Notes: generated by a model from the sequence alone, not told the origin. Shown: positions 3,234 to 59,131, counted from the first letter of the stretch. The stretch: DNA of 64,000 bases from Tepidiformaceae bacterium (GCA_051003295.1 JBPCLM010000135.1:1053-65052), one strand, 5' to 3'. Program-made: numbers and translations.

Positions 3234-3608
3234 GCGTGGGGGCCGCGCAGCGCAATCGTCAATCGTGACTCGTAGATCGTGAATCGAATAGCGCCAGCGC
3301 ACGCGCCCGATGATCAGTGCGGGCGGGACCGGGCCGAACGTGCGACTGTCGGTGCTGGCCGCGGCATTATCGCCCGTCAGCCACACGCCGCCGTGGAGGT
3401 CGATTCGCCCCACGCGCTTCACAATGAGGCGCGCCGGGGAGCGTGGGTCGCGCGCGAGCACGATCGCGCCCGGTAGCGGCAGCCGCCGCCCGAAGCCACG
3501 GGTATCGATGATCACGAAGTCGCCGGGTCGTAGCACCGGGAGCATGCTTTCGCCGCGGATCTCGAAGCGCTGGAAGCGTCGCGCGCACGCCATGGCGAGG
3601 ACCGCCAC
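3213..3608 (-). CDS. sodX: S26 signal-peptidase-like protease, NiSOD maturation peptidase SodX-like
   Basis: Motifs GESMLP (Ser nucleophile), KRV, GDN and STDSR. Lies immediately downstream of sodN on the same strand. GTG start at 3608 (an ATG at 3593 is also possible). The last ~25 codons run through repeats. Confidence 0.75.
   Translation of the reverse strand: MAVLAMACARRFQRFEIRGESMLPVLRPGDFVIIDTRGFGRRLPLPGAIVLARDPRSPARLIVKRVGRIDLHGGVWLTGDNAAASTDSRTFGPVPPALIIGRVRWRYSIHDLRVTIDDCAARPPRPTEPRA
3253..3287. repeat. heptanucleotide tandem array, CAATCGT family, 5 units
   Basis: caatcgt caatcgt gactcgt agatcgt gaatcga. Lies inside the 3' tail of the sodX ORF. Confidence 0.8.
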
Positions 3609-3706
3609 AACCGCCGCGCAGCACAGCCCGAAGGCGAACGCCCGGGCCCGCGCGTAGGCGGCACGCCCGGGCTCGCGCTTGAGCGGCCTAGTACGTCCTG
3701 AAATTT

Positions 3707-3835
3707 GGCGCCGGTTCAGAAACGAGCACGGGTGTATTGCTCCCCTCGCCCACCGCAGTGGGAGAGGGGTTGGGGGTGAGGGCCCGAGGCCGCGGACTGC
3801 ACGCGTAGCGTCTCAATTGAGTACTAACTGGCGCG
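3707..3835. mobile_element. MITE-like palindromic element, copy 1 (REP hairpin core CCCCTCGCCC..GGGAGAGGGG)
   Basis: About 115-130 bp, similar to 42207..42320 with an identical 41-nt core. Terminal inverted GGCGCCRGTT / AACTGGCGCG. Sits between sodN and sodX and overlaps the last codons of sodN. Confidence 0.55.
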
Positions 3836-4267
3836 ATAGAAGGGGACGTCGCGTCCCTTGCTCGCCCAGAACATGGTGTGGATCTCCTCGATCGCGCTGA
3901 GGAGCGCCTCGCCGTTTTCAGGGTTCGATTCGACCTTGTTCTTGGAACAGAGCTTGGCCGCATTCCAGAAGACATCGTGCAGGTTTGGGTACTTCGCCAG
4001 GTGCTCCGGCTTGAAGTAGTCGTGCCAGAGCACAGCGATTTCGTGCTTGGCGAGTTCGGCCTGCGATTCCTTGATGTCGATGTAGCGCGTGCGCGTGTTC
4101 TCCGTCGCCAGGTCGTGCGCGTCGCCGAGGGCCGCCAGCTTCTTTTCCAGCGAGAGCACGGCTTCGGCGGCGATGCGTGCGGAAGCCGGGTCGTACACGC
4201 CGCAGGGGGCGTCGCAGTGGGCGTGGGCCACGCGTGATGGGCGGAGGATGCGGGTCAGAAGGCTCAT
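3824..4267 (-). CDS. sodN: nickel superoxide dismutase precursor
   Basis: ATG at 4267 with an AAGGAG RBS. A 16-aa propeptide (MSLLTRILRPSRVAHA) is followed by the Ni-hook HCDAPCGVY (consensus H-C-x-x-P-C-G-x-Y). Confidence 0.9.
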   Translation of the reverse strand: MSLLTRILRPSRVAHAHCDAPCGVYDPASARIAAEAVLSLEKKLAALGDAHDLATENTRTRYIDIKESQAELAKHEIAVLWHDYFKPEHLAKYPNLHDVFWNAAKLCSKNKVESNPENGEALLSAIEEIHTMFWASKGRDVPFYRAS

Positions 4268-4467
4268 GGGGTGCGATGCTCCTTGTGGTTGGGTGGACGC
4301 GGTAGGCGACAGGCGCGCCAGGTGCCCTGCGTTCAGCCTGCGCAGTATACGGCGGCCGGCGGCACGCGCGCGAGGAACGGGTCCCCCCGGTGGCTGGTGT
4401 TCGAAGATCACGCTGGGTGATGCGCTATTGTCGGGCCGGCCGACATTTGAGGCTTACCAGCATCTTG

Positions 4468-4779
4468 CTAGAGCAGATCCTGTACCAGAGAGCGCGACAC
4501 CAACGTTCGGGTCCCGTCCGCACGATTGGCCTTCGCCTCGAACTCCTGCCATTGGCGGTCAGCACTCCGGGCCTGCATGAAGGCCGCATACGCAGCCATG
4601 TCGTCGAACTCAAGCGTGGCCACCATCTGACCGGTGTTGGGGCCGCCCACGACCATCTCGCCCAAACGGAACCGGCCCCCGAGACGAGTCAGATGCTCCT
4701 TGGCCTGGGCCGTTTCCTTCAGAAACTCCTCGCGCTTGCCGTCGCGGGGTTGAAAAATAGTCACAGCACGAACTGCCAT
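4468..4779 (-). CDS. hypothetical small protein (103 aa)
   Basis: ATG at 4779 preceded by AGGAGG. High GC3. No family recognised with confidence. Confidence 0.65.
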   Translation of the reverse strand: MAVRAVTIFQPRDGKREEFLKETAQAKEHLTRLGGRFRLGEMVVGGPNTGQMVATLEFDDMAAYAAFMQARSADRQWQEFEAKANRADGTRTLVSRSLVQDLL

Positions 4780-4910
4780 TTCGACGCCTCCTGAGTGGCG
4801 ATCGCAAGGATACGTAATCGTAGATACGCTGGCAACCTTGTTGACCCAGGCTGCCATGTGGGGCACAGAGCAGGTGGCTCGCGGCACGCGCCCTGACTGG
4901 TGACGACGGC

Positions 4911-6473
4911 TCAGGCTCCGATGCGCACCGTTCCGCGCTCACCGTCCACCGTGATCATCGCGCCATCTGGGATTGCCGACGTGCCGATCATCGTCCCGAC
5001 GACGCAGGGGATGGTGTATTCGCGCGCACAGATGGCGGAGTGGGAGAGGACGCCCCCGGTGTCCGTGACCACTCCCCCGGCGATCGCGAAGAGCGGTGTC
5101 CAGGGCGGCGCCGTCATCGTGCAGACGAGGATGTCGCCGGGTTCAAGCCGGTCGGCGTCCGCCAGGTCCCGGATGACCCGGGCGCGGCCGCTGACAACGC
5201 CCTTGCTCGCGGGGTTTCCGGCAATGACCGCCGCGTCCTTGGAAGGCTCGACTCCCAGGCCGAAGAACCGCTTGAAGACGGATTGGACCTCCGGCGGAAC
5301 CTCGTCCATGGCCGGCGGCTGGCCGAGGAAGGGCGGGGGCGTGAGCGTCTTCGCGTGCTGGAGCTCGCGCTTGCGCTGTTCGACGAGCGCGAGCGTTGCC
5401 GAGGACGGGACGGTGGCGGCCTGCTTCAGCTCGACTGCATCAAGGAAGAACGCGTCGTTGGGGTCCGCGAGCGCTCCCGCCGCCTGCAGCTTTCGGCCGA
5501 GGGCAATCACAGGGACGCGAAGGCTGCCGACGATGGTCAGCTGCCAGCGGGCCCGCCCTTCGCTCATTGCGACGTGTGGCCGGGCGACCGCAACCATCCC
5601 CAGGAGCTGCTCGAGCACCTCACCGCTCAGCCGCGAACGGACGTCCTGCTCAGCGGTCTCGCGCAGCTCGGCCGAGCGCCCGATCGAAGCGCCGGGCGAA
5701 TGCTCCCCGCCATCGAGGAAGGCGGCGATGAGCTTGAGCGGCGCCGGCGCGTTCTCCGCCCAGGTTGGATGGTGCATCAGCGCCCAGTCGTCCACTCGCC
5801 AGCCGTAGTCCCGGAGGAAGGCCTCGAAACGTTCCAGGAACTCGGTTCCGCCAGCCACCGTCCCGAGCTCATCGAAGCGGCCGTCACGCAGCGCGCGGGC
5901 GACCTCCGGCAGCGTGCGCGCGAGATCGGTCAGCTCGCCGAGGCCGGAGCCCGCGGCGGATGTCTCGTTGGCGTATCCCTGGAGCATCGAGGAGACCAGC
6001 AATGGTCCATCCGGGCCGAGCGCCTGCTCGCTGAACTCGATCAGGCCAAGTGTCGGACCCATGAACGGCAGGATCACGACCATCGTGCAGCGGTACATCT
6101 CGCCCGCCTCCCGGAACAGCTCCGGCACCCGGCCCGCGAGGTCCGCCGCCGGGAGCGACTCGTAGTCCGCGGAGCGGACGGCCTCGCAGAAGGCGGCGAT
6201 ACGCGGGACGAACTCGTCCTCCCAGATGCGGACCGCGCCTTTTTCCAGCACTTCGGGGGTGGGCGGGGGCGGCCCATAGTCCTTCATGAAGGGGTAGCCG
6301 TTGACGAACGCTGTCTCGACCTGGAAGGCGCCGGTCATGATCGACCGCACGATGTCCTGGCTCAGCGGAGGCAGCGGCTGGGGCCAGTGCATGGGGTCGT
6401 ACATCCACGTGAACGCCCTGTCCGGGGCGTTCGGGAGCTCAAAGCCAGTGTCGGGGGCGGGTACGGTTGTCAT
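4911..6473 (-). CDS. PEP-utilizing enzyme mobile-domain protein (no ATP-grasp domain)
   Basis: ATG at 6473 with a GGAGGA RBS. The C-terminal swivel domain carries GGVLSHSAICAREYTIPCVVG (phospho-His motif). Confidence 0.85.
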   Translation of the reverse strand: MTTVPAPDTGFELPNAPDRAFTWMYDPMHWPQPLPPLSQDIVRSIMTGAFQVETAFVNGYPFMKDYGPPPPTPEVLEKGAVRIWEDEFVPRIAAFCEAVRSADYESLPAADLAGRVPELFREAGEMYRCTMVVILPFMGPTLGLIEFSEQALGPDGPLLVSSMLQGYANETSAAGSGLGELTDLARTLPEVARALRDGRFDELGTVAGGTEFLERFEAFLRDYGWRVDDWALMHHPTWAENAPAPLKLIAAFLDGGEHSPGASIGRSAELRETAEQDVRSRLSGEVLEQLLGMVAVARPHVAMSEGRARWQLTIVGSLRVPVIALGRKLQAAGALADPNDAFFLDAVELKQAATVPSSATLALVEQRKRELQHAKTLTPPPFLGQPPAMDEVPPEVQSVFKRFFGLGVEPSKDAAVIAGNPASKGVVSGRARVIRDLADADRLEPGDILVCTMTAPPWTPLFAIAGGVVTDTGGVLSHSAICAREYTIPCVVGTMIGTSAIPDGAMITVDGERGTVRIGA

Positions 6474-9324: not shown

Positions 9325-9879
9325 TTGGAGACGCTCTACTGGCTCGTGATCGATGTAGCGGGGTCACTGGCGTTGCTCGGCTGCGGAGTGCTGGGGGTGT
9401 GGACCTGGCGGCGGGCAGGGGCGCGCTTCGATGGCTCGCTCTACTGGGTGCTGGCCGGCGCCGGGCTCATCTACCTGGCCGTCGATGAGCGGCTGAGCCT
9501 GCACGAACGGCTGGGCAGGCGCCTCGATCGCGCCGGCTTCGATGCGCCGGGGACCAACCACGCCGACGACGCCGTCCTGCTGGCGTTCGCGCTCGCGGGG
9601 CTGTGCGTTTCGCTGGCGTTCGTGCGCGAACTGATGCGGCACCGCGCTGTGCTCGCGCCGCTGCTGGTGGGCGGCATGGTGACGGCCCTGGCACTTGCCA
9701 TAGACGCGCTCGCGCCGGTCGAAGGGTGGGCGCCCGTCATCGAAGAGCACCTGGAACTGGCGGGCTGCGCGCTCTTCCTGCTGGCGTTCGTGCGCCGCTA
9801 CCGCGTGGCTGCGCGGACCGCGGGGCAGGGCTCGGGACGCGCCGTCGCAGCCGCCCCGGCGCCGATTAGCACTCTGTGA
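9325..9879 (+). CDS. hypothetical membrane protein
   Basis: TTG start after AAAAGGA. 4-5 TM helices and high GC3. The stop codon lies inside the left arm/spacer of the groEL CIRCE. Confidence 0.65.
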   Translation: METLYWLVIDVAGSLALLGCGVLGVWTWRRAGARFDGSLYWVLAGAGLIYLAVDERLSLHERLGRRLDRAGFDAPGTNHADDAVLLAFALAGLCVSLAFVRELMRHRAVLAPLLVGGMVTALALAIDALAPVEGWAPVIEEHLELAGCALFLLAFVRRYRVAARTAGQGSGRAVAAAPAPISTL

Positions 9880-9892
9880 CCGGGAGTGCTAA
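9866..9892. promoter_or_regulatory. CIRCE operator (HrcA binding site), perfect consensus
   Basis: TTAGCACTC-tgtgaccgg-GAGTGCTAA matches TTAGCACTC-N9-GAGTGCTAA exactly, 46 nt upstream of groEL. Confidence 0.92.
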
Positions 9893-52698: not shown

Positions 52699-53733
52699 CT
52701 ATTCGGCCTCGCCCCGGTACTTTCGCAGCAGTTCCGTCAGCACGTCCGCCACGTAGCGCACGTGCGCGACGCTATCGCCGTATGCCATGCGCGTCGGCCC
52801 CAGCACGCCCAGCATGCCGCCCGCGCCGCCCTTCGCCCCGTAGCGCGCGAGCACGAAGCTCATGTCCTTGTACGGCCCCTCGGTGTTCTCGTCGCCGATC
52901 ACGATCGCCACGTCCCCTTCTTCCACAGCACCCGCGGGGATGGCGCGTGTCAACCGCCGTTCGTCCACCGCTTCGAGCATGTCGAGCATGCGGTCGCTAT
53001 CGCCGAACTCCGGCTGGCGCAGCATTTCGCGCACGCCTTCGACCACGGGCGCTTCCGCCACCGCCGCCTGTTCGCGCAGCAACACCTCCGCCACCGCCGC
53101 CACAACGATGCTTTCGACCGCGCCCTGCGGCTCCGGGCCTTCCTTCACGGGCAGGTCCGCCGCCATCTTGCCCGCGAAGTCGGCGTTCAGCCGCGCCGCG
53201 ATGCGCCCCAGTTGCTCCTGGTTCGCCGCCACCGGGAACTCCAGCGTCTGCTGGTGCACGGATGTGTCCGAAGTCACGACCACGAGCAGCGCGCGGTTGT
53301 CCGCCAGCTCCACCAGTTGCAGTTGCTTGAGACGCACTTCGCGCACGCGCGGCTGCGTCACGAGGGCCACGTTGTGCAGCGAATTCGCGAGCACGCTCGC
53401 CGCCAGCCCCACCCATTCCTCCATCTGCCGCGTGCTCTGGTGGAACTGGTGCAGGATGGCGATCTCCTCCTGCCGCGAAAGGCCCCGCTCGGGCATCAGC
53501 GAGCTCACGTAGTAGCGATAGCCGCGGTGCGAAGGGATGCGCCCCGCGGATGTGTGCGGGTGCGTGATCATGCCCTCGTCTTCGAGCGCCGCCATTTCGT
53601 TGCGCACGGTCGCGCTGGAAAGCCCGAGGGCATGGCGTGCCACCAGCGCCTGCGATCCCACCGGCGCCGCGCTGTCCACGTAGTCATCCACAATAAAAGC
53701 GAGGATTCGCGCCCTACGCTCTGACAACGACAT
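52699..53733 (-). CDS. hrcA: heat-inducible transcription repressor HrcA
   Basis: ATG at 53733 after [29 protein letters not shown]... and ATVRNEMAALEDEGMITHPHTSAGRIP. Confidence 0.93.
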   Translation of the reverse strand: MSLSERRARILAFIVDDYVDSAAPVGSQALVARHALGLSSATVRNEMAALEDEGMITHPHTSAGRIPSHRGYRYYVSSLMPERGLSRQEEIAILHQFHQSTRQMEEWVGLAASVLANSLHNVALVTQPRVREVRLKQLQLVELADNRALLVVVTSDTSVHQQTLEFPVAANQEQLGRIAARLNADFAGKMAADLPVKEGPEPQGAVESIVVAAVAEVLLREQAAVAEAPVVEGVREMLRQPEFGDSDRMLDMLEAVDERRLTRAIPAGAVEEGDVAIVIGDENTEGPYKDMSFVLARYGAKGGAGGMLGVLGPTRMAYGDSVAHVRYVADVLTELLRKYRGEAE

Positions 53734-53750
53734 TATCAACCCCTCCCGCC

Positions 53751-53780
53751 ATTCTAGCACTCAGCCCCCGAGAGTGCCAG
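53751..53780 (-). promoter_or_regulatory. CIRCE-like operator (CTGGCACTC-N9-GAGTGCTAG) overlapping the candidate hrcA promoter (-10 TAGAAT)
   Basis: 3 mismatches to the CIRCE consensus. The -10 starts with the last 3 nt of the right arm, exactly as at groEL. Confidence 0.75.
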
Positions 53781-53913
53781 AGGGGCGGGAGCAGCGTTCG
53801 CATCGGCGCGCTTCGTGAGCACGCCAGTTTGGATGTATCCTGGGCGGCGGCGCGGAGCATCGCAGTACCGAAGCTCCAGTTGAGACAGCGATAAACAGCC
53901 TCTGGAGGGGTCA

Positions 53914-55680
53914 TTGGCAGGGAGCAACGAGCCAACCACGATCAACGACCTGCTGAAGCGAGACGTGATTCTCGAGGCGCCCGTCTTCCAGCGCAGATTC
54001 GCTTGGCAGGAAAAACAACTGGCTGACTTCTGGGAAGACTTCAACGGTGCGCGCGACCATGACTCCGACACGGTCTTCTTGGGCGCGGTGATACTACGCC
54101 CGGAGTCACCCAGTACGGCTAGCACGGCAGAGCGCTGGCTGATTATCGATGGGCAGCAGCGCCTGACCGCGCTCTCGCTCCTCGTCGCCGCGATCTGTCT
54201 GGAAGCGATTGCAACGCAAGGAACCGGTGACACCGCTACGCAGGAGTTTGTAACCAACCAAGTGCGACGCTATCTGCTTCCACAGTCGCATGGGAATCTC
54301 AAAAACCTTGAAACGAAGGTGATGGTGACGACTCCGGATCTTGATGACTACCGGGCAGCGATTGGCTTGGTGGGAATCGACGAAGTGCTGCCCCTTAAAC
54401 GGAAAGCAAACATGAATTCCAAGATACATCGAGCCCTCGAATTTCATCGCGAACAGGTTAAGGATCGCGTCGGCGCGGCAGCGAAACTGGAAAACTACAC
54501 CGCCCTTCTGGAGGAGTTGGTTTCGAAGGTGGAGCTGATCGAGATCCATCTTGCCGAGCGCCACGACCCGAACGAAGTATTCAACCGGCTGAACACCAAG
54601 GGCGCGGAGCTGACGTTGGGGGACCTGGTCCGGAATGAGGCCTTCGGCCGCTTCTCGACCGATCGGGAGGGAGCGAATCGGGCCTTTCAATCCCATTGGA
54701 GGCAGTTCGAGGATCGCTTCCCGACAGATGATAGCCGCGAAGCATACTACTGGCCCTTTACACTCGCGGCCGAGCCCACTGCGACGAAAGGCAAGGCGTT
54801 CTCCCTCTTGAGGAAGCGGTGGCTTGGATTGAGCGACGCTCAGAAGGGCGAAGACGCCGAAGCCGCTATCAAGCTCATCGTGGAAGACTTGGGGCGGTAC
54901 GTCGATGCGTTCTGCCTCCTTCACGACGGGCGCAGATTCGAAGGCCTGACTGGTCAGGTTACGGGGGCTGCGCTCCGCTTGCAGCGGATGAAGCTTCCGT
55001 CGGTCACCTATTCATTTCTGCTACAGGTGTTGGATGCGGCGAGGACAAAGGATCTCGCCTCAGGGGATGCGGCGACCACCCTCGGCATCGTAGAATCATT
55101 CCTCGTTCGCCGTGCTTTGATTGGGCTCGAACCAACGGGCCTGCATGCTGTGTTCAAGCGGCTGTGGGGAAAGTCTCGGGGCCAGCCGGGAGCAGTCAGA
55201 ACCGGCCTTGTGACCTCGACGATCGCGTTTCCCAGTGACGATGACATCCTCAGAGAGCTGCCAACGGTGAACATGTACAGGCGCCGTCTCGCGCCCTACA
55301 TTCTCGGCGAGTATGAGCGCGCCCACACGAAAGGCGATCCCCTGTCAGAAGATCAATTGACCAAGTTCACCATTGATCACGCGGCGCCCCAGTCCTTTGA
55401 GTCGCGATGGATCCGTGAGTACGGCCTGGTCAGGGATGCAATCTCTGCGTTGCTGAACTCGTGGGGGAATCTCGTGCCGCTTTCCGCCATTGCAAACTCA
55501 ACGAAAGGCGCGTCTGACTGGGTAGAAGCGCGCGGTACACTCGGCAACGAAACGGTCTATAAGACGACCAAAGACCTCTTAGATGACTATGCGGACTGGA
55601 CGCCTAGGGAGATCCGGGCGCGAACGAATCACCTGACAGAGTGGGCCATTTCCCGGTGGCCGGATTATTCGGCATCGTAA
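53914..55680 (+). CDS. DUF262 + DUF1524 (GmrSD-like) nuclease, putative type IV restriction/defence protein
   Basis: IIDGQQRLTAL (DGQQR at 54148-54162). C-terminal FTIDHAAPQS...WGNLVPLSAIANSTKG (His-Me finger-like). TTG start after GGAGGGG. Visibly lower GC. Confidence 0.85.
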   Translation: MAGSNEPTTINDLLKRDVILEAPVFQRRFAWQEKQLADFWEDFNGARDHDSDTVFLGAVILRPESPSTASTAERWLIIDGQQRLTALSLLVAAICLEAIATQGTGDTATQEFVTNQVRRYLLPQSHGNLKNLETKVMVTTPDLDDYRAAIGLVGIDEVLPLKRKANMNSKIHRALEFHREQVKDRVGAAAKLENYTALLEELVSKVELIEIHLAERHDPNEVFNRLNTKGAELTLGDLVRNEAFGRFSTDREGANRAFQSHWRQFEDRFPTDDSREAYYWPFTLAAEPTATKGKAFSLLRKRWLGLSDAQKGEDAEAAIKLIVEDLGRYVDAFCLLHDGRRFEGLTGQVTGAALRLQRMKLPSVTYSFLLQVLDAARTKDLASGDAATTLGIVESFLVRRALIGLEPTGLHAVFKRLWGKSRGQPGAVRTGLVTSTIAFPSDDDILRELPTVNMYRRRLAPYILGEYERAHTKGDPLSEDQLTKFTIDHAAPQSFESRWIREYGLVRDAISALLNSWGNLVPLSAIANSTKGASDWVEARGTLGNETVYKTTKDLLDDYADWTPREIRARTNHLTEWAISRWPDYSAS

Positions 55681-55841
55681 CCTTCTGGCCTGTGTCCGGC
55701 GTTGGCGACAACGGGCACCGCCGCCTGATGAATGCCACTTCCCTTGCCAGATCCCATGCTGCATATGCGACCATGCCCTCGCCGACACTCCGGTCACCTC
55801 TCCGGTAGCGCTCGGCGAACTCTCGGGGGAGCTCGGAGAAG

Positions 55842-56471
55842 TCAAGTCTCGCCGGTTTCGCCGATATAGTTCAGAAGCCACTCGCGCTCCTCAGTCGCGA
55901 GCCGCTTGTCGAACGGCAGATGTGGGCACCAGCCCCGGAACAGCCGAAGCTCGCCAGCGATGTCGTTCCCCCAGAAATGGACGAGCCCCTCGGTGAGAGA
56001 CCGATCGCCTTGGACATACCGATCAACGAATCCCGCCACCGCTGCCTCCGCCCCGGCGCAGTGTCCACAGTGCTGCCAATGGCCCCGACATCGGGCACAC
56101 CACCTGTCCCTCCGGGCGTGGTCCCAATCGCCGTTGGGGCCGAATGCCCTGTGCGTGTTGTCTGCCATCAAGCGCGCTTCCGCAGGTGTCATCGTCGCGA
56201 GGTAGCGGAGGTTCACGTCCGTGACGACGGCCTGCCCGCAAACGTCGGGCAAGCGGTCGTGGCGGCGGCCGCCGTGGTCGATTCTGCACCCGCCGACATA
56301 CCGTTCTTCGGAGATCGCGTCGAGGCTGGACCACTCGCACTCCCAATTTGGACAGCCGTCGTCTTCGAAATGCCCGCATCCGTTCCGCTCTAGCGCGCAG
56401 AACACATCCTCGCTCCCGGCGTGTGATGGCCAAGGTATACTGCGCCGCATGGCATCAGGGCAAGCCCTCAT
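55842..56471 (-). CDS. Cys/His-rich hypothetical protein, unknown family
   Basis: Coding-like frame with 11 Cys (CGHFEDDGCPNWEC and WCARCRGHWQHCGHC). The start is ambiguous: TTG 56483, ATG 56471 or ATG 56450. Confidence 0.6.
   Translation of the reverse strand: MRACPDAMRRSIPWPSHAGSEDVFCALERNGCGHFEDDGCPNWECEWSSLDAISEERYVGGCRIDHGGRRHDRLPDVCGQAVVTDVNLRYLATMTPAEARLMADNTHRAFGPNGDWDHARRDRWCARCRGHWQHCGHCAGAEAAVAGFVDRYVQGDRSLTEGLVHFWGNDIAGELRLFRGWCPHLPFDKRLATEEREWLLNYIGETGET
56436..56441 (+). promoter_or_regulatory. candidate -10 (TATACT) of a leaderless transcript
   Basis: TATACT, then 7 nt, then the ATG at 56449. Lies inside the 5' end of the divergent Cys-rich ORF. Confidence 0.4.
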
Positions 56472-56703
56472 CGACCTCTGCAAGCGCCACGTCGTCGAGA
56501 CGTTGGAGTCTCTGCCTGAGTGCGCCCCGACCGGCCCCGGCCTCGGCCAGAAGGCAATCGAAGACGCCGCCGGTTTCGCCCTCGCCCTCCCCGAGTACGA
56601 CGGCTACTTCACGTGGTCGCTCCTTGTCGCGCTCACAATCGATGGCAAAGTCGAGGCGACCCAGCCCGGCAAGCGCAACAAGAAGTACCGGCTCGCCCTC
56701 TAG
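56449..56703 (+). CDS. hypothetical small protein (84 aa), possibly winged-helix-like
   Basis: ATG at 56449. High GC3. Ends with a basic tail (KRNKKYRLAL). Confidence 0.55.
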   Translation: MASGQALIDLCKRHVVETLESLPECAPTGPGLGQKAIEDAAGFALALPEYDGYFTWSLLVALTIDGKVEATQPGKRNKKYRLAL

Positions 56704-56880
56704 CCCCTCCCCTTCGGCGTGCTCGGCGGGACGTTCGACCCGCCGGATAGCGGGCACCTCGCGCTGGCCGAGTGCGCGCGCGTGCAGTTCGCGCTCGGAC
56801 GCGTGCTCTTCGTGCCCGCGGGCGACCCCTGGCGCAAGACGGGGTCAGGCCCGGGGCCCGAGGCCCGGGGTCCGGGCCCA
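56704..56880 (+). pseudogene. truncated, degenerate copy of the nadD 5' region
   Basis: About 93% identical by eye to 57158-57334. Lacks the start codon. HSGH is changed to DSGH (gat at 56746-56748). Diverges after the heptamer array. Confidence 0.75.
56845..56879. repeat. heptanucleotide tandem array, CSRGGCC family, 5 units
   Basis: tcaggcc cggggcc cgaggcc cggggtc cgggccc. Confidence 0.75.
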
Positions 56881-56894
56881 CCGGGCGGCTGTGC

Positions 56895-56900
56895 TAATCT
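56895..56900 (+). promoter_or_regulatory. candidate extended -10 (TGcTAATCT) of a leaderless transcript
   Basis: TAATCT, then 6 nt, then the ATG at 56907. Confidence 0.45.
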
Positions 56901-56906
56901 TGGTGC

Positions 56907-57122
56907 ATGTCATCGTCCGTCGTATCGCCCGCTGAGGCCTCGGCTGACTTGCCTGCACTGCTCGCCCGTGTCGAACGAGGGGAGGAGATCGTGATTGCGC
57001 GCGATGGCGCGCCTGTCGCCCGCATCGTGCCAGCGGGATCCTCCGGCCGCCCTCCGCGGCCCTTCGGCACCGCCATCGGGCTTATCGAACTGCTGCCCGG
57101 TTGGGACGACGACCCCTCCTAA
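56907..57122 (+). CDS. Phd/YefM-type type II antitoxin, no cognate toxin adjacent
   Basis: [39 protein letters not shown] is a typical Phd/YefM N-terminal fold sequence. The next gene is nadD. Confidence 0.8.
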
Positions 57123-57136
57123 CACCCCCACCCCCG

Positions 57137-57142
57137 TACACT
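57137..57142 (+). promoter_or_regulatory. candidate -10 (TACACT) of a leaderless nadD transcript
   Basis: TACACT, then 6 nt, then the ATG at 57149. Confidence 0.45.
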
Positions 57143-57148
57143 GCCCCC

Positions 57149-57829
57149 ATGCCCTACCCCCTCCCCTTCGGCGTCCTTGGCGGGACGTTTGACCCGCCGC
57201 ATAGCGGGCACCTGGCGCTGGCCGAGTGCGCGCGCGTGCAGTTCGCGCTCGGACGCGTCCTCTTCGTGCCCGCCGGCGACCCCTGGCGCAAGACGGGGTC
57301 AGGCCCGAGGCCCGAGGCCCGGGGCCCGAGCCCATCACCAACCGCGGCCCCAACCGAAAGTGGACAGGCGCGCGACATCTCCCCCGCCGCCCACCGCCTC
57401 GCGATGGTGCGGCTCGCCATCGCCGGCAACCCCGCCTTCGCCGTCGATGAGCGCGAGCTGCGCCGCCCCGGCCCCTCCTACACCGTCGACACCCTCGAAG
57501 AACTCCGCGCCGAACTGGGCGCCGAATCGTCAATCGTCAATCGTCAGTCGTCGATCGTCCTCGTGCTCGGCGCCGACGCCCTCGACGACCTGCCCCACTG
57601 GAAGGATCCCGCGCGCATCTTCGAGCTCGCCCGCGTCGCCGTCGCCCCCCGCCCGGGCCACCCAGCCCCCACCGCCGGGCCGTCAGCGCTGACGGTGGAG
57701 ATGCCCCCGCTCGCCATCACCTCCAGCGATATCCGCGCGCGCCTGGCCGCCGGCAAGCCCATCCGCTACCTCGTCCCCGACGCCGTCGCCGCCTACATCG
57801 CCGAACACGGCCTCTACCGCCCGGGGTAG
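57149..57829 (+). CDS. nadD: nicotinate-nucleotide adenylyltransferase
   Basis: [29 protein letters not shown] and ISSSDIR-like TSSDIRARL. Contains two in-frame heptamer arrays. Confidence 0.88.
   Translation: MPYPLPFGVLGGTFDPPHSGHLALAECARVQFALGRVLFVPAGDPWRKTGSGPRPEARGPSPSPTAAPTESGQARDISPAAHRLAMVRLAIAGNPAFAVDERELRRPGPSYTVDTLEELRAELGAESSIVNRQSSIVLVLGADALDDLPHWKDPARIFELARVAVAPRPGHPAPTAGPSALTVEMPPLAITSSDIRARLAAGKPIRYLVPDAVAAYIAEHGLYRPG
57300..57334. repeat. heptanucleotide tandem array, CGAGGCC family, 5 units, inside nadD
   Basis: tcaggcc cgaggcc cgaggcc cggggcc cgagccc encodes SGPRPEARGPSP. Confidence 0.8.
57524..57565. repeat. heptanucleotide tandem array, CAATCGT family, 6 units (42 nt, in frame), inside nadD
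   Basis: gaatcgt caatcgt caatcgt cagtcgt cgatcgt cctcgtg encodes ESSIVNRQSSIVLV. Confidence 0.8.
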
Positions 57830-57840
57830 CACCCCCGGAC

Positions 57841-57917
57841 TCAGGCCTCAGGACTCACGACTCATGCCTCATCCCTCATGCCTCATCCCTCATGCCGCAT
57901 CCCTCATCCCTCATCCC
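57841..57917. repeat. heptanucleotide tandem array, TCATSCC family, 11 units
   Basis: tcaggcc tcaggac tcacgac tcatgcc tcatccc tcatgcc tcatccc tcatgcc gcatccc tcatccc tcatccc, between convergent nadD and a CoA-transferase gene. Confidence 0.85.
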
Positions 57918-59131
57918 TACCCAATCACTCCCGCCGTCGCCAGCCGGTCCAGTTCCTCCCCTTCGATGCCCATCTCCGCCAGCACCTCGAAGGTGTGCTC
58001 CCCCAGGTCCGGCGCCGGGCCGCGCGCGCCCGTGTCCGTGCCGTAGAGCTTGAAGGGCGTGTCCAGCGTCTCGAACGATCCGAACTGAGGGTGCTCGATG
58101 GTCGCGAACCAGCCCATTTCGTGCACCTGCGGGTCCTCGATCATGTCCGTCATCGTGGCCACAGGCGCCCAGATGAGGCCCGCCTCGTCCATCTTCGCCC
58201 CCCAGTAGTCGCGCGGGTGCTCCGCCATGATGCCCTCGATCTCCTCCGTCAGCGCCGTCGTCTGCGCGCGCAGCTTGGGGATGTCGTTGTAGCGTTCGTC
58301 AGTCGCCCACTCGGGCCGCCCCGCCGCCGCGCAGAACGCCGGCCAGTGCCGCGGGAACGGCACCGGGTTCACCAGCAGCAACCAGAGCCCATCGCCGCAC
58401 TGGTACGAATTCCAGATCGGGTTCACCGGCGCCTTGCGGCTGATGCGCGGCGGGTTCTGCTTCGAAACCAACCCCGCCGCGAAATCGCCCGCGATCGTCC
58501 ACATGCCCGTCGCCTGCAGCGTCAGCTCCACGTGCTGGCCCTCGTCCGTCTTGTCGCGCATGCGGAGGGCGGCGAGCGTGGCCGCGAGCACATTCAGCGC
58601 CGTCGTGTGGTCGCCCTGCCCCCCGCGGCAGAGCGGCGGCGGCGCGTCCGGCTCCGCCAGCAGGCCCATGATCCCAGAACGCGCCCAGAACGCCGCGAAG
58701 TCGAACCCCGGCCGGTCTTCATCCGGACCGCGTGTGCCGTAGCCGCTGAAGGAGACGTAGATCGCCTTCTCGTTCACCGCGCGCACGTCATCGAACGTCA
58801 GCCCGTAACGTACGCGCCGCCGCTGCACCAGGTTCGTCAGGAAGATGTCGCACGACTCCGCCATCTTGCGCACCAGCTCCGGCCCGCCCGCCTTCTCCAG
58901 GTCGACCGTCACCGAACGCTTGCCGCGGTTGTCGAGCTGGAACGCGTAGTTCGTGGCGAAGTCGTGGTCGTAGCCCATCGAACGCAGGATGAAGTGCCGG
59001 TAGATGTCGCCCGATGGCGGCTCGATTTTGATGACGTCGGCGCCCATATCGGCCATGAGAGCCGTGGCGGCGGGCGCTGCCAGCCAGTTCGCGACCTCCA
59101 GCACACGGATGCCATCGAGTGGTGCGGCCAT
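57917..59131 (-). CDS. CoA-transferase family III (CaiB/BaiF) protein
   Basis: GIRVLEVANWLAAPAATALMADMGADVIKIEPP is a typical N-terminal motif. Confidence 0.9.
   Translation of the reverse strand: MAAPLDGIRVLEVANWLAAPAATALMADMGADVIKIEPPSGDIYRHFILRSMGYDHDFATNYAFQLDNRGKRSVTVDLEKAGGPELVRKMAESCDIFLTNLVQRRRVRYGLTFDDVRAVNEKAIYVSFSGYGTRGPDEDRPGFDFAAFWARSGIMGLLAEPDAPPPLCRGGQGDHTTALNVLAATLAALRMRDKTDEGQHVELTLQATGMWTIAGDFAAGLVSKQNPPRISRKAPVNPIWNSYQCGDGLWLLLVNPVPFPRHWPAFCAAAGRPEWATDERYNDIPKLRAQTTALTEEIEGIMAEHPRDYWGAKMDEAGLIWAPVATMTDMIEDPQVHEMGWFATIEHPQFGSFETLDTPFKLYGTDTGARGPAPDLGEHTFEVLAEMGIEGEELDRLATAGVIG

Follow-up and report, generated by a model that had tools for sequence, protein, structure and literature searches.

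In the window analysed here, a 64 kb stretch of DNA from an uncultured member of the Tepidiformaceae (Chloroflexota) whose own positions serve as coordinates, the interval between hrcA and nadD carries a gene for a predicted GmrSD-family type IV restriction enzyme next to two small genes. The GmrSD gene is probably a stand-alone cassette that occupies a recombination-prone defence slot anchored by those two genes, rather than one part of a three-gene system. The anchoring pair consists of an RGWCP-family gene (a name coined here from the core motif of the family), which belongs to a cysteine-rich subfamily, and a divergently transcribed gene for an 84-amino-acid (aa) protein. The gene on the far side of the RGWCP gene is termed the cargo, and other loci of the pair or of the small gene are designated by L numbers. 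A preliminary description of the region had proposed an undescribed GmrSD variant in which the three genes work together. This proposal is not supported, since the pair also accompanies HATPase_c, AbiU/AIPR, HEPN, Dcm and unknown cargo, and both the lineage and the orientation of the GmrSD gene vary; on the best reading, the pair marks the slot and does not supply dedicated GmrSD partners. The three open reading frames (ORFs) of that description are present, and homologues show that each is a real gene. The features of the slot are as follows:

53751 to 53780, minus strand: hrcA promoter-like site overlapping a CIRCE-like operator (promoter scan and sequence reading)
53780 to 55841, no strand: variable defence cassette of low G+C content (GC), without nucleotide homology to the same interval of the closest relative, L001 (blastn against L001 and GC)
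53914 to 55680, plus strand: GmrSD-family type IV restriction enzyme, putative, 588 aa, TTG start (Pfam, PADLOC, motifs)
55842 to 56405, minus strand: RGWCP-family protein of the Cys-rich subfamily, 187 aa, no named family (homologues, alignments, AlphaFold2)
56430 to 56448, no strand: conserved CCAAGGTATACT box, 7 nucleotides (nt) before the ATG of the small gene (comparison across loci)
56449 to 56703, plus strand: small conserved protein, 84 aa, isoelectric point 5.7, no named family (homologue clusters, alignment, contexts)

Members of the GmrSD family cleave modified DNA, for example DNA with glucosylated hydroxymethylcytosine, in a reaction stimulated by nucleoside triphosphates (NTPs). 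Judged by its sequence, the 588-aa protein is a single-chain enzyme of this family, and its gene is very likely a defence gene. Both halves of the DUF262 (DGQQR) plus DUF1524 architecture that had been read from the DNA score above the Pfam cut-offs: GmrSD_N/DUF262 (PF03235) covers residues 10-243 (E 3.2e-27, 96.4 bits against a cut-off of 33.2), and GmrSD_C/DUF1524 (PF07510) covers residues 439-577 (E 1.6e-12, 47.9 bits against 23). The linker between the Pfam envelopes is about 195 residues long (244-438), where the family criterion is an alpha-helical linker of 200-400 residues. The family motifs given by Machnicka et al. (PMC4619093) are (I/V)(I/V)DGQQRLTT(I/L/V)xLL in the N-domain, with DGQQR near-invariant, and the E/D-H-N-N HNH-type motifs (I/L/V)(E/D)H(I/L/V)xPQ and L(G/A)NLxLLxxxN in DUF1524. 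The motifs of the window protein match them: IIDGQQRLTALSLL at aa 77-90, with DGQQR at aa 79, fits the N-domain motif, and the nuclease motifs are IDHAAPQ at aa 487 and GNLVPL..AN at aa 518-528, the latter lying in WGNLVPLSAIAN (aa 517-528), where the spacing is one residue longer than the consensus. The best PADLOC matches are full-length and are to the single-gene type IV models Orf5, HEC-06 and mREase_IV; PADLOC matched neither small gene. The single sequence relative in the PDB, the DUF262 protein 9jfl_B, corresponds to the N-terminal domain only. A Shine-Dalgarno sequence, GGAGGGG, lies ahead of the TTG start, which aligns with the ATG of the L007 homologue.

The GmrSD cassette is compositionally foreign to its surroundings. 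With a GC of 0.585 and a third-position GC (GC3) of 0.70, the GmrSD gene is the minimum among all 1767-nt windows of the 64 kb (mean GC 0.684, standard deviation 0.025, both computed on windows of that size). The G+C counts made by hand in the preliminary description (31, 29 and 50 in the 60-nt lines at 54301, 54361 and 52441) are exact on recounting. The low-GC island drawn there from 53781 to 57148 contains a real dip and is too wide: the dip is confined to 53780-55841, the Cys-rich gene (GC 0.649, GC3 0.77) and the 84-aa gene (GC 0.655, GC3 0.86) are near host values, and the right edge at 56704-57153 is GC-rich (0.727). To the left of the slot, the minus strand carries dnaK, grpE and hrcA, the last with a likely ATG start at 53733. 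The left boundary of the cassette is the promoter-like site of hrcA with its operator, which resembles a controlling inverted repeat of chaperone expression (CIRCE) and reads CTAGCACTC-N9-GAGTGCCAG at 53754-53780; nucleotide homology to L001 stops at 53779. A canonical CIRCE, TTAGCACTC-N9-GAGTGCTAA, occurs elsewhere in the window at 9866-9892, and the hrcA copy differs from it at three positions.

The comparison with L001 separates the resident genes from the exchanged one. Amino-acid identity between the window and this closest relative is 88% for dnaK, 84% for hrcA and 81% for RGWCP, and nucleotide identity is 79% for the pair and 81% for hrcA. In blastn, homology is found only in hrcA (52718-53779) and in the RGWCP and small genes (55874-56697), and by this measure the window cassette is the segment 53780-55873 (GC 0.592). 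The order in L001 is nadD, two small genes, the small protein, RGWCP, cargo and hrcA, and its cargo, read from the opposite strand, is another GmrSD with 34% identity to that of the window. As for the hrcA-nadD interval, which the preliminary description had asked to be compared among relatives, the pair and hrcA are kept, the cargo is swapped, and the compositional break is limited to GmrSD. The nadD-facing side of the slot (L001 8102-9754) is also variable, because L001 has extra ORFs there: a 63-aa ORF, 1 nt after the small gene, has weak, sub-threshold matches to DNA-binding models and is followed by a YgiT/MqsA-type zinc-finger ORF. The nadD gene of L001 has a long poly-proline low-complexity insert.

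Several other loci also show that cargo is exchanged, and that this has happened recently. Outside the slot, L009, L010 and L011 share 92-99% identity, and their small proteins are identical; L010 carries a GmrSD_N gene, L011 an intact HATPase_c gene, and L009 a version of the HATPase cassette of L011 in which no gene is called and which is possibly decayed. Between L010 and L011 there are two breakpoints, one downstream of SUI1 and the other within RGWCP, 25 nt from its 3' end. A sharp conservation break after RGWCP in this trio was considered as a recombination site and rejected; it is mostly the end of the protein, because many RGWCP members naturally end there. L049 and L050 have the pair in common and differ in cargo (198 aa versus 790 aa). 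The order hrcA, cargo, RGWCP, small gene is found in the window, L001, L012, L020, L045 and L046, where the cargos are GmrSD enzymes of lineages A (window, L020), B (L001) and C (L012, L045) and, in L046, a HATPase_c_3 protein. Related genomes with common flanks differ in cargo, which is the pattern by which a defence hotspot is recognised. In nine of nine loci examined, the window included, the cargo gene is 3-12 GC points below the GC of its locus.

The Cys-rich gene was initially described as encoding a convergent 200-aa Cys/His-rich protein. The gene is real, convergent with GmrSD and rich in both residues (11 Cys, 10 His); its product is 187 aa long, from a GTG at 56405 that aligns with the ATG start of homologues, and the cysteines are subfamily-specific. 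Two cysteine clusters are restricted to the subfamily of the window protein, and in alignments the wider RGWCP family is without most of those cysteines. The conserved motifs of the family are NLxYLATMTxxE, LTEG and DIAGELRLFRGWCP, and its core reads NLxYLATMTxxE ... LTEG ... DLAGELRxxRGWCP. The family is very rare: among 1.84 billion representative proteins, an exhaustive search with its profile recovered only about 18 clusters (50% identity). Nine close homologues of the Cys-rich protein were found, 58-99% identical to it. Its subfamily is very rare: a scan of GTDB representatives with the Cys-rich alignment found the genome of L001 only, and a scan of JGI metagenomes found none. With 9 sequences, AlphaFold2 gave an unusable model of the Cys-rich protein (predicted local distance difference test, pLDDT, 42); with 26 sequences the pLDDT was 70, with an all-helical core at 75-97 over residues 60-160. 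In Foldseek searches of PDB and BFVD this usable core model matched nothing better than E 0.48, and no fold was assigned. The gene had been called unassignable to any family, which agrees with the searches: Pfam, PADLOC, NCBIfam and PHROGs gave no match for the RGWCP or the small protein, with family members tried up to E 5, nor did helix-turn-helix (HTH) or zinc-finger models at E up to 5, and profile searches of both proteins against PDB sequences were empty. An Anti-TRAP match (E 0.0038, below cut-off) was dismissed, as it lies in the non-coding N-terminal extension of the long Cys-rich ORF. Zinc binding by the Cys-rich protein and DNA binding by the small protein are plausible guesses; the labels 'zinc finger' and 'winged helix' are likewise guesses.

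The 84-aa protein is strongly conserved, with 86 homologue clusters at 57-100% identity, and its gene is the constant divergent partner of the Cys-rich gene. No match was found in phage or plasmid collections, and on this ground an origin of the small protein from a mobile element was rejected. The start codons of the two divergent genes are 43 nt apart in the window, 19-43 nt apart in loci with both starts mapped, and 115 nt apart in L012. In 16 of 19 distinct loci the ATG of the small gene is preceded, after 6-7 nt, by the box CC(A/T)GGTATA(C/G/T)T, which may be a -10-like element for a leaderless mRNA. The GTATAC core of the box is palindromic, and therefore the box could act as a promoter firing in both directions.

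In general, the pair is found beside defence genes of several families. Among uncultured Chloroflexota it occupies 16 or more distinct loci: the two genes are divergent neighbours in the window, L001, L006, L007, L009-L012, L016, L018-L020, L024, L025, L031 and L045-L052, and the pair with an RGWCP gene of the Cys-rich subfamily is also found in L053-L055. The count of distinct pair-linked cargos is 16, of which 9 are GmrSD-family, 2 HATPase, 1 AbiU/AIPR, 1 HEPN, 1 Dcm and at least 2 unknown. Cargo in the slots tested is dominated by defence genes, a count not set against random loci, and many of the loci represent one hotspot inherited vertically. The cargos, and the genes that adjoin the small gene where it occurs without RGWCP, are as follows:

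GmrSD lineage A: window, L007 and L020 (69-75% identical)
GmrSD lineage B: L001 (34% identical to lineage A)
GmrSD lineage C: L010/L006/L055, L012 and L045/L053
GmrSD lineage D: L041, adjoining the small gene alone, with no RGWCP gene
HATPase_c (GHKL ATPase): L011, L019 and L046
AIPR/AbiU: L047 and L048
HEPN protein: L016
Dcm methylase: L018
Cargo of unknown family: L049, L050-L052, L024 and L031
Small gene without RGWCP, with Vsr, Dcm and XamI: L013-L015
Small gene without RGWCP, with NaeI, HhH-GPD and HNH: L039 and L040
Small gene without RGWCP, with Dcm and NotI: L043 and L044
Small gene without RGWCP, with a STAND ATPase and a CBS-domain protein: L033
Small gene without RGWCP, with an AAA_21/DUF3696 ATPase: L042
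Small gene without RGWCP, with DUF4928 (L021), HNH (L036) or barstar (L034)

One exception is L028, where the small-gene homologue lies among Fe-S, NAD-binding and hydrogenase-like genes. The GmrSD neighbours belong to at least four lineages, share 23-34% identity where they can be aligned at all, and occur in both orientations (convergent in the window, L007 and L006; co-directional in L001); because of this variety in lineage and orientation, there is no conserved operon. Several proteins in or near the slot are candidate defence genes by position. Two are slot cargo beside the pair, at L050 3186-5558 (790 aa) and L049 675-1271 (198 aa); two large ORFs lie near the small gene, at L022 1732-3333 (533 aa, two genes upstream) and L030 32-1513 (493 aa); and one, L025 1218-2723 (501 aa), is on the opposite, non-cargo side of the small gene. 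PADLOC had no match for any of the five, Pfam run on the L022, L030 and L025 proteins found none, and no precomputed Pfam match is on record for the L049 and L050 proteins. In a distant branch of the small gene, the constant opposite flank encodes, convergently, a protein of about 1140 aa that combines RNase_H_2 and SF1-helicase (AAA_11/AAA_12) domains (L039 8668-12081, L041 2799-4979, L042 8388-11831); the cargo upstream is a NaeI restriction-modification system in L039, a GmrSD_N gene in L041 and an AAA_21/DUF3696 ATPase in L042.

The junctions of the slot retain relics of flanking genes. In the window these lie at both ends of the pair and are listed here with the genes that accompany them:

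55694 to 55825, minus strand: remnant of a second, foreign RGWCP gene, comprising its C-terminal ~44 codons (hmmsearch with the family profile, E 1e-10)
56700 to 56880, plus strand: direct-repeat copy 1, a dead nadD 5' fragment (repeat search, Pfam CTP_transf_like, alignment)
56907 to 57122, plus strand: antitoxin-like gene of Phd/YefM type, 71 aa (PF02604 at 33.3 bits, cut-off 29.8; TIGR01552 at 27.2 bits, cut-off 20.8)
57149 to 57829, plus strand: intact nadD, with repeat copy 2 at 57154-57334 (Pfam CTP_transf_like, E 1.1e-19; synteny with L001 and L045)

The RGWCP relic lies within the 161 nt between the stop codons of GmrSD and RGWCP. Its motifs are decayed (LTEG to VGEG, RGWCP to RRRCP) and invariant family residues are lost; its identity is 58% to P0102, of another subfamily, and 44% to the resident gene, which lies 20 nt from it. 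Since this foreign remnant stands beside GmrSD, the cassette brought part of its donor flank with it. Relics of this kind comprise RGWCP' and nadD' in the window, hrcA' in L020 and small' in L006. In L020, a gene for a 708-aa Ser/Thr protein kinase (3275-5562) lies between hrcA and the GmrSD cargo, and a 55-nt copy of the hrcA 5' end with half a CIRCE is found on the far side of the kinase insert, the same flank-duplication signature as in the window. In L006 (53-1068), a HicA toxin gene with an ORF upstream lies between an intact small gene and a C-terminal relic of the small gene (…QPGKRNKKCRLA).

At the right edge, the dead nadD copy comprises codons 4 to ~62, has no start codon, is in frame with the 84-aa gene and begins exactly at its stop codon; the first His of the GGTFDPPHSGH signature of intact nadD is replaced by Asp. 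The two copies form a 181-nt direct repeat (56700-56880 and 57154-57334), 94% identical, which encloses 273 nt with the Phd-like gene only. The duplication reported earlier at this edge is therefore real as a repeat; since it brackets only the 273-nt insert, its copies are not attachment sites of the island, and it looks like a scar of Campbell-type or one-sided recombination rather than an attachment-site pair. No toxin ORF was found beside the Phd/YefM-like gene, whose next neighbour is nadD, and the gene is an orphan or remnant, not a complete type II toxin-antitoxin module. No integrase or transposase was seen in any annotated context, and the window has no such ORF; nor is the island bracketed in the window by a recombinase with direct repeats or by a tRNA. 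Scans of the region for tRNA and transfer-messenger RNA, Rfam families and terminators gave no relevant match. Two heptamer tandem repeats occur nearby: CTCATGC/CTCATCC, about 11 copies at 57840-57918, between the convergent nadD and CoA-transferase genes, and AATCGTC, 5 copies, in frame inside nadD at 57525-57559. In L010 (4629-4684/7262-7317) and L011 (4500-4559/7258-7316), G-rich inverted repeats of 56-60 nt bracket the cargo, RGWCP and the small gene, and the intergenic regions of both loci have several copies of a CCCCCTCTCCC…GAGGGGG element. These inverted repeats are probably a lineage-specific element resembling repetitive extragenic palindromes, or, less probably, the ends of a mobilisable unit; terminal inverted repeats as a general feature of the slot were rejected, being absent from the window, L012 and L020.

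Under the favoured explanation, a stand-alone cassette in an anchored slot, the divergent RGWCP and 84-aa genes would be the resident part, and the space between them and the hrcA promoter/CIRCE would hold the single defence cassette last acquired by the lineage. The present cargo would be a single-chain type IV enzyme, most likely one that needs no partner. If it behaves like other members of the family, its DUF262 ParB-like domain (DGQQR) would bind and hydrolyse NTP, and its DUF1524 His-Me/HNH domain would cut modified phage DNA. The cassette was probably acquired horizontally, from a donor whose locus was built alike and whose GmrSD gene converged on RGWCP, an arrangement also seen in L020; the piece of donor RGWCP carried along would now be decaying beside the intact resident copy. 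Once foreign DNA has been taken up, cargo is probably exchanged through recombination within the conserved flanks or close to them. The pair would serve as an anchor and not as a subunit of GmrSD, perhaps with a regulatory role through the compact promoter that its two genes share.

Several points weigh against this explanation. The autonomy of the nuclease is assumed from its relatives. Many contexts are short metagenomic contigs, and some of their ORFs were called greedily in this analysis. Distant homologues of the small gene (38-52% identical) also edge defence cargo, a pattern compatible as well with a function of the gene in defence. Nor is the pair an anchor of housekeeping type: its sites include the one by hrcA, another that has SUI1/purH on one side and an acyl-CoA dehydrogenase gene on the other, and further ones; when the flanks are compared, hrcA fits a vertically inherited core gene, and the pair occurs in several neighbourhoods with small-gene identities incongruent with the host. 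The small protein of the window is 71% identical to the L001 copy versus 84-87% to those of L010, L016, L018 and L045, genomes whose hrcA or RGWCP is much more distant than that of L001, a pattern which suggests that the anchor genes themselves are exchanged or mosaic. Lastly, co-occurrence of the Cys-rich homologues with DUF262-family genes, put forward in the preliminary description as a test, is found in all five distinct contexts of the close subfamily (lineages A, A, B, C1 and C2), versus 4 of 11 in other RGWCP subfamilies (hypergeometric probability about 0.03, kinship ignored). These five contexts leave room for a specific link to GmrSD.

The five contexts, drawn from several lineages, are also a ground for a dedicated three-gene GmrSD variant with the Cys-rich (Zn-binding) and 84-aa proteins as obligate partners or modulators of the nuclease. 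The relic adds to them, because it shows that in the donor, too, this GmrSD faced a convergent RGWCP gene, and two-gene type IV systems with DUF262 and DUF1524 exist, for example in V. cholerae (PMC11014532). The idea is nevertheless improbable: the divergence and the two orientations of the GmrSD partners speak against it, the wider RGWCP family and the small gene accompany other cargo, the cysteine clusters are not conserved across the family, and single-chain Eco94GmrSD is active alone (PMC4437046). A broader role, in which the pair functions as an accessory module for the slot at large and GmrSD is only one of its clients, is less doubtful, though still unlikely. The small protein might then be a regulator at the shared promoter, with RGWCP as sensor or partner, that controls or licenses the adjacent defence gene, or the pair might be a dedicated device for capturing and anchoring single-gene defence cassettes. 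It is favoured by the recognisable defence or restriction genes that adjoin the pair or the small gene in most distinct contexts, among them distant homologues whose neighbourhoods are unrelated; by the position of the small gene 7-47 nt downstream of cargo on the same strand in several loci (after XamI, NaeI and CBS-domain genes); by the strongly conserved promoter box in a compact divergent intergenic region; and by a small gene that is highly conserved yet phylogenetically incongruent. Against an accessory module stand the variable orientation of cargo relative to the pair, with no consistent operon, the L028 homologue among metabolic-type neighbours (Fe-S, NAD-binding and hydrogenase-like genes), the failure to detect a DNA-binding, enzymatic or recombinase domain in either protein, and the vertical inheritance of the hotspot in many contexts, which makes the association less independent than the counts suggest. 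It is very improbable that the whole of 53781-57148 is a mobile element integrated at the 5' end of nadD with the 181-nt repeats as attachment sites. A long direct repeat of the nadD 5' end, a gene of toxin-antitoxin type and the foreign GC of the GmrSD gene would fit such an element; the placement of both repeat copies at the right edge, around the Phd-like gene only, contradicts it. Moreover, no integrase, transposase, tRNA or terminal inverted repeat was found in the window, the pair and the hrcA...nadD synteny are kept in L001 and L045 without the duplication, and only the GmrSD cassette deviates in composition.

The window enzyme shares with single-chain GmrSD proteins such as Eco94GmrSD (PMC4619093, PMC4437046) the DUF262-linker-DUF1524 organisation, both motif sets, a length of ~590 aa and a setting in a variable defence region; in contrast to them, it has no close characterised relative, and its host is an uncultured chloroflexotan. 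BrxU (PMC8565348) and SspE are likewise two-domain members of the GmrSD family, and the PADLOC SspE models match the window protein weakly and N-terminally. Unlike those proteins, which are embedded in multi-gene loci, the window protein is without bacteriophage exclusion (BREX) or Ssp genes and has two unannotated small genes as neighbours. The slot resembles core-flanked hotspots, such as the core defence hotspots (cDHS) of P. aeruginosa (PMC10250203) and the defence islands of E. coli (PMC10121019), in its fixed flanks, in strain-variable cargo of deviant composition and in needing no mobility genes inside. However, the constant flank of the chloroflexotan slot is an unannotated pair rather than housekeeping genes, it recurs in several neighbourhoods and lineages, the pair shows signs of its own exchange, and there is usually one gene per slot. 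The pair also invites comparison with a different class of genes. BrxR/CapW and CapH-CapP are regulator modules that accompany many different defence systems; the pair is similar to them as a small conserved gene or gene pair beside diverse, unrelated defence cargo, and differs in having no detectable WYL, HTH or metallopeptidase domain or HExxH motif and no fixed orientation to its cargo.

To our knowledge, the Chloroflexota have barely been surveyed for defence systems, and there is almost no experimental phage biology in this phylum. The GmrSD gene alone is routine; the slot is the useful result. A rare RGWCP family and a strongly conserved 84-aa protein mark a site of repeated exchange of single defence genes in uncultured Chloroflexota, and the flank relics (RGWCP', nadD', hrcA' and small') record exchange of cargo without any recombinase seen. 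Several slot cargos have no known family, and the pair is a guilt-by-association handle for new defence genes. There is a tentative, minority case that the pair is a dedicated module which defines or services single-gene defence slots across the Chloroflexota. If so, it might control the expression of the resident cargo or promote its capture and exchange. The pair would then represent a novel type of organiser for defence islands, and it could serve as bait in the search for further defence genes, such as those of the unknown 790-aa, 533-aa and 198-aa proteins. The slot thereby raises the question of whether some defence hotspots have dedicated organiser genes rather than neutral core flanks.

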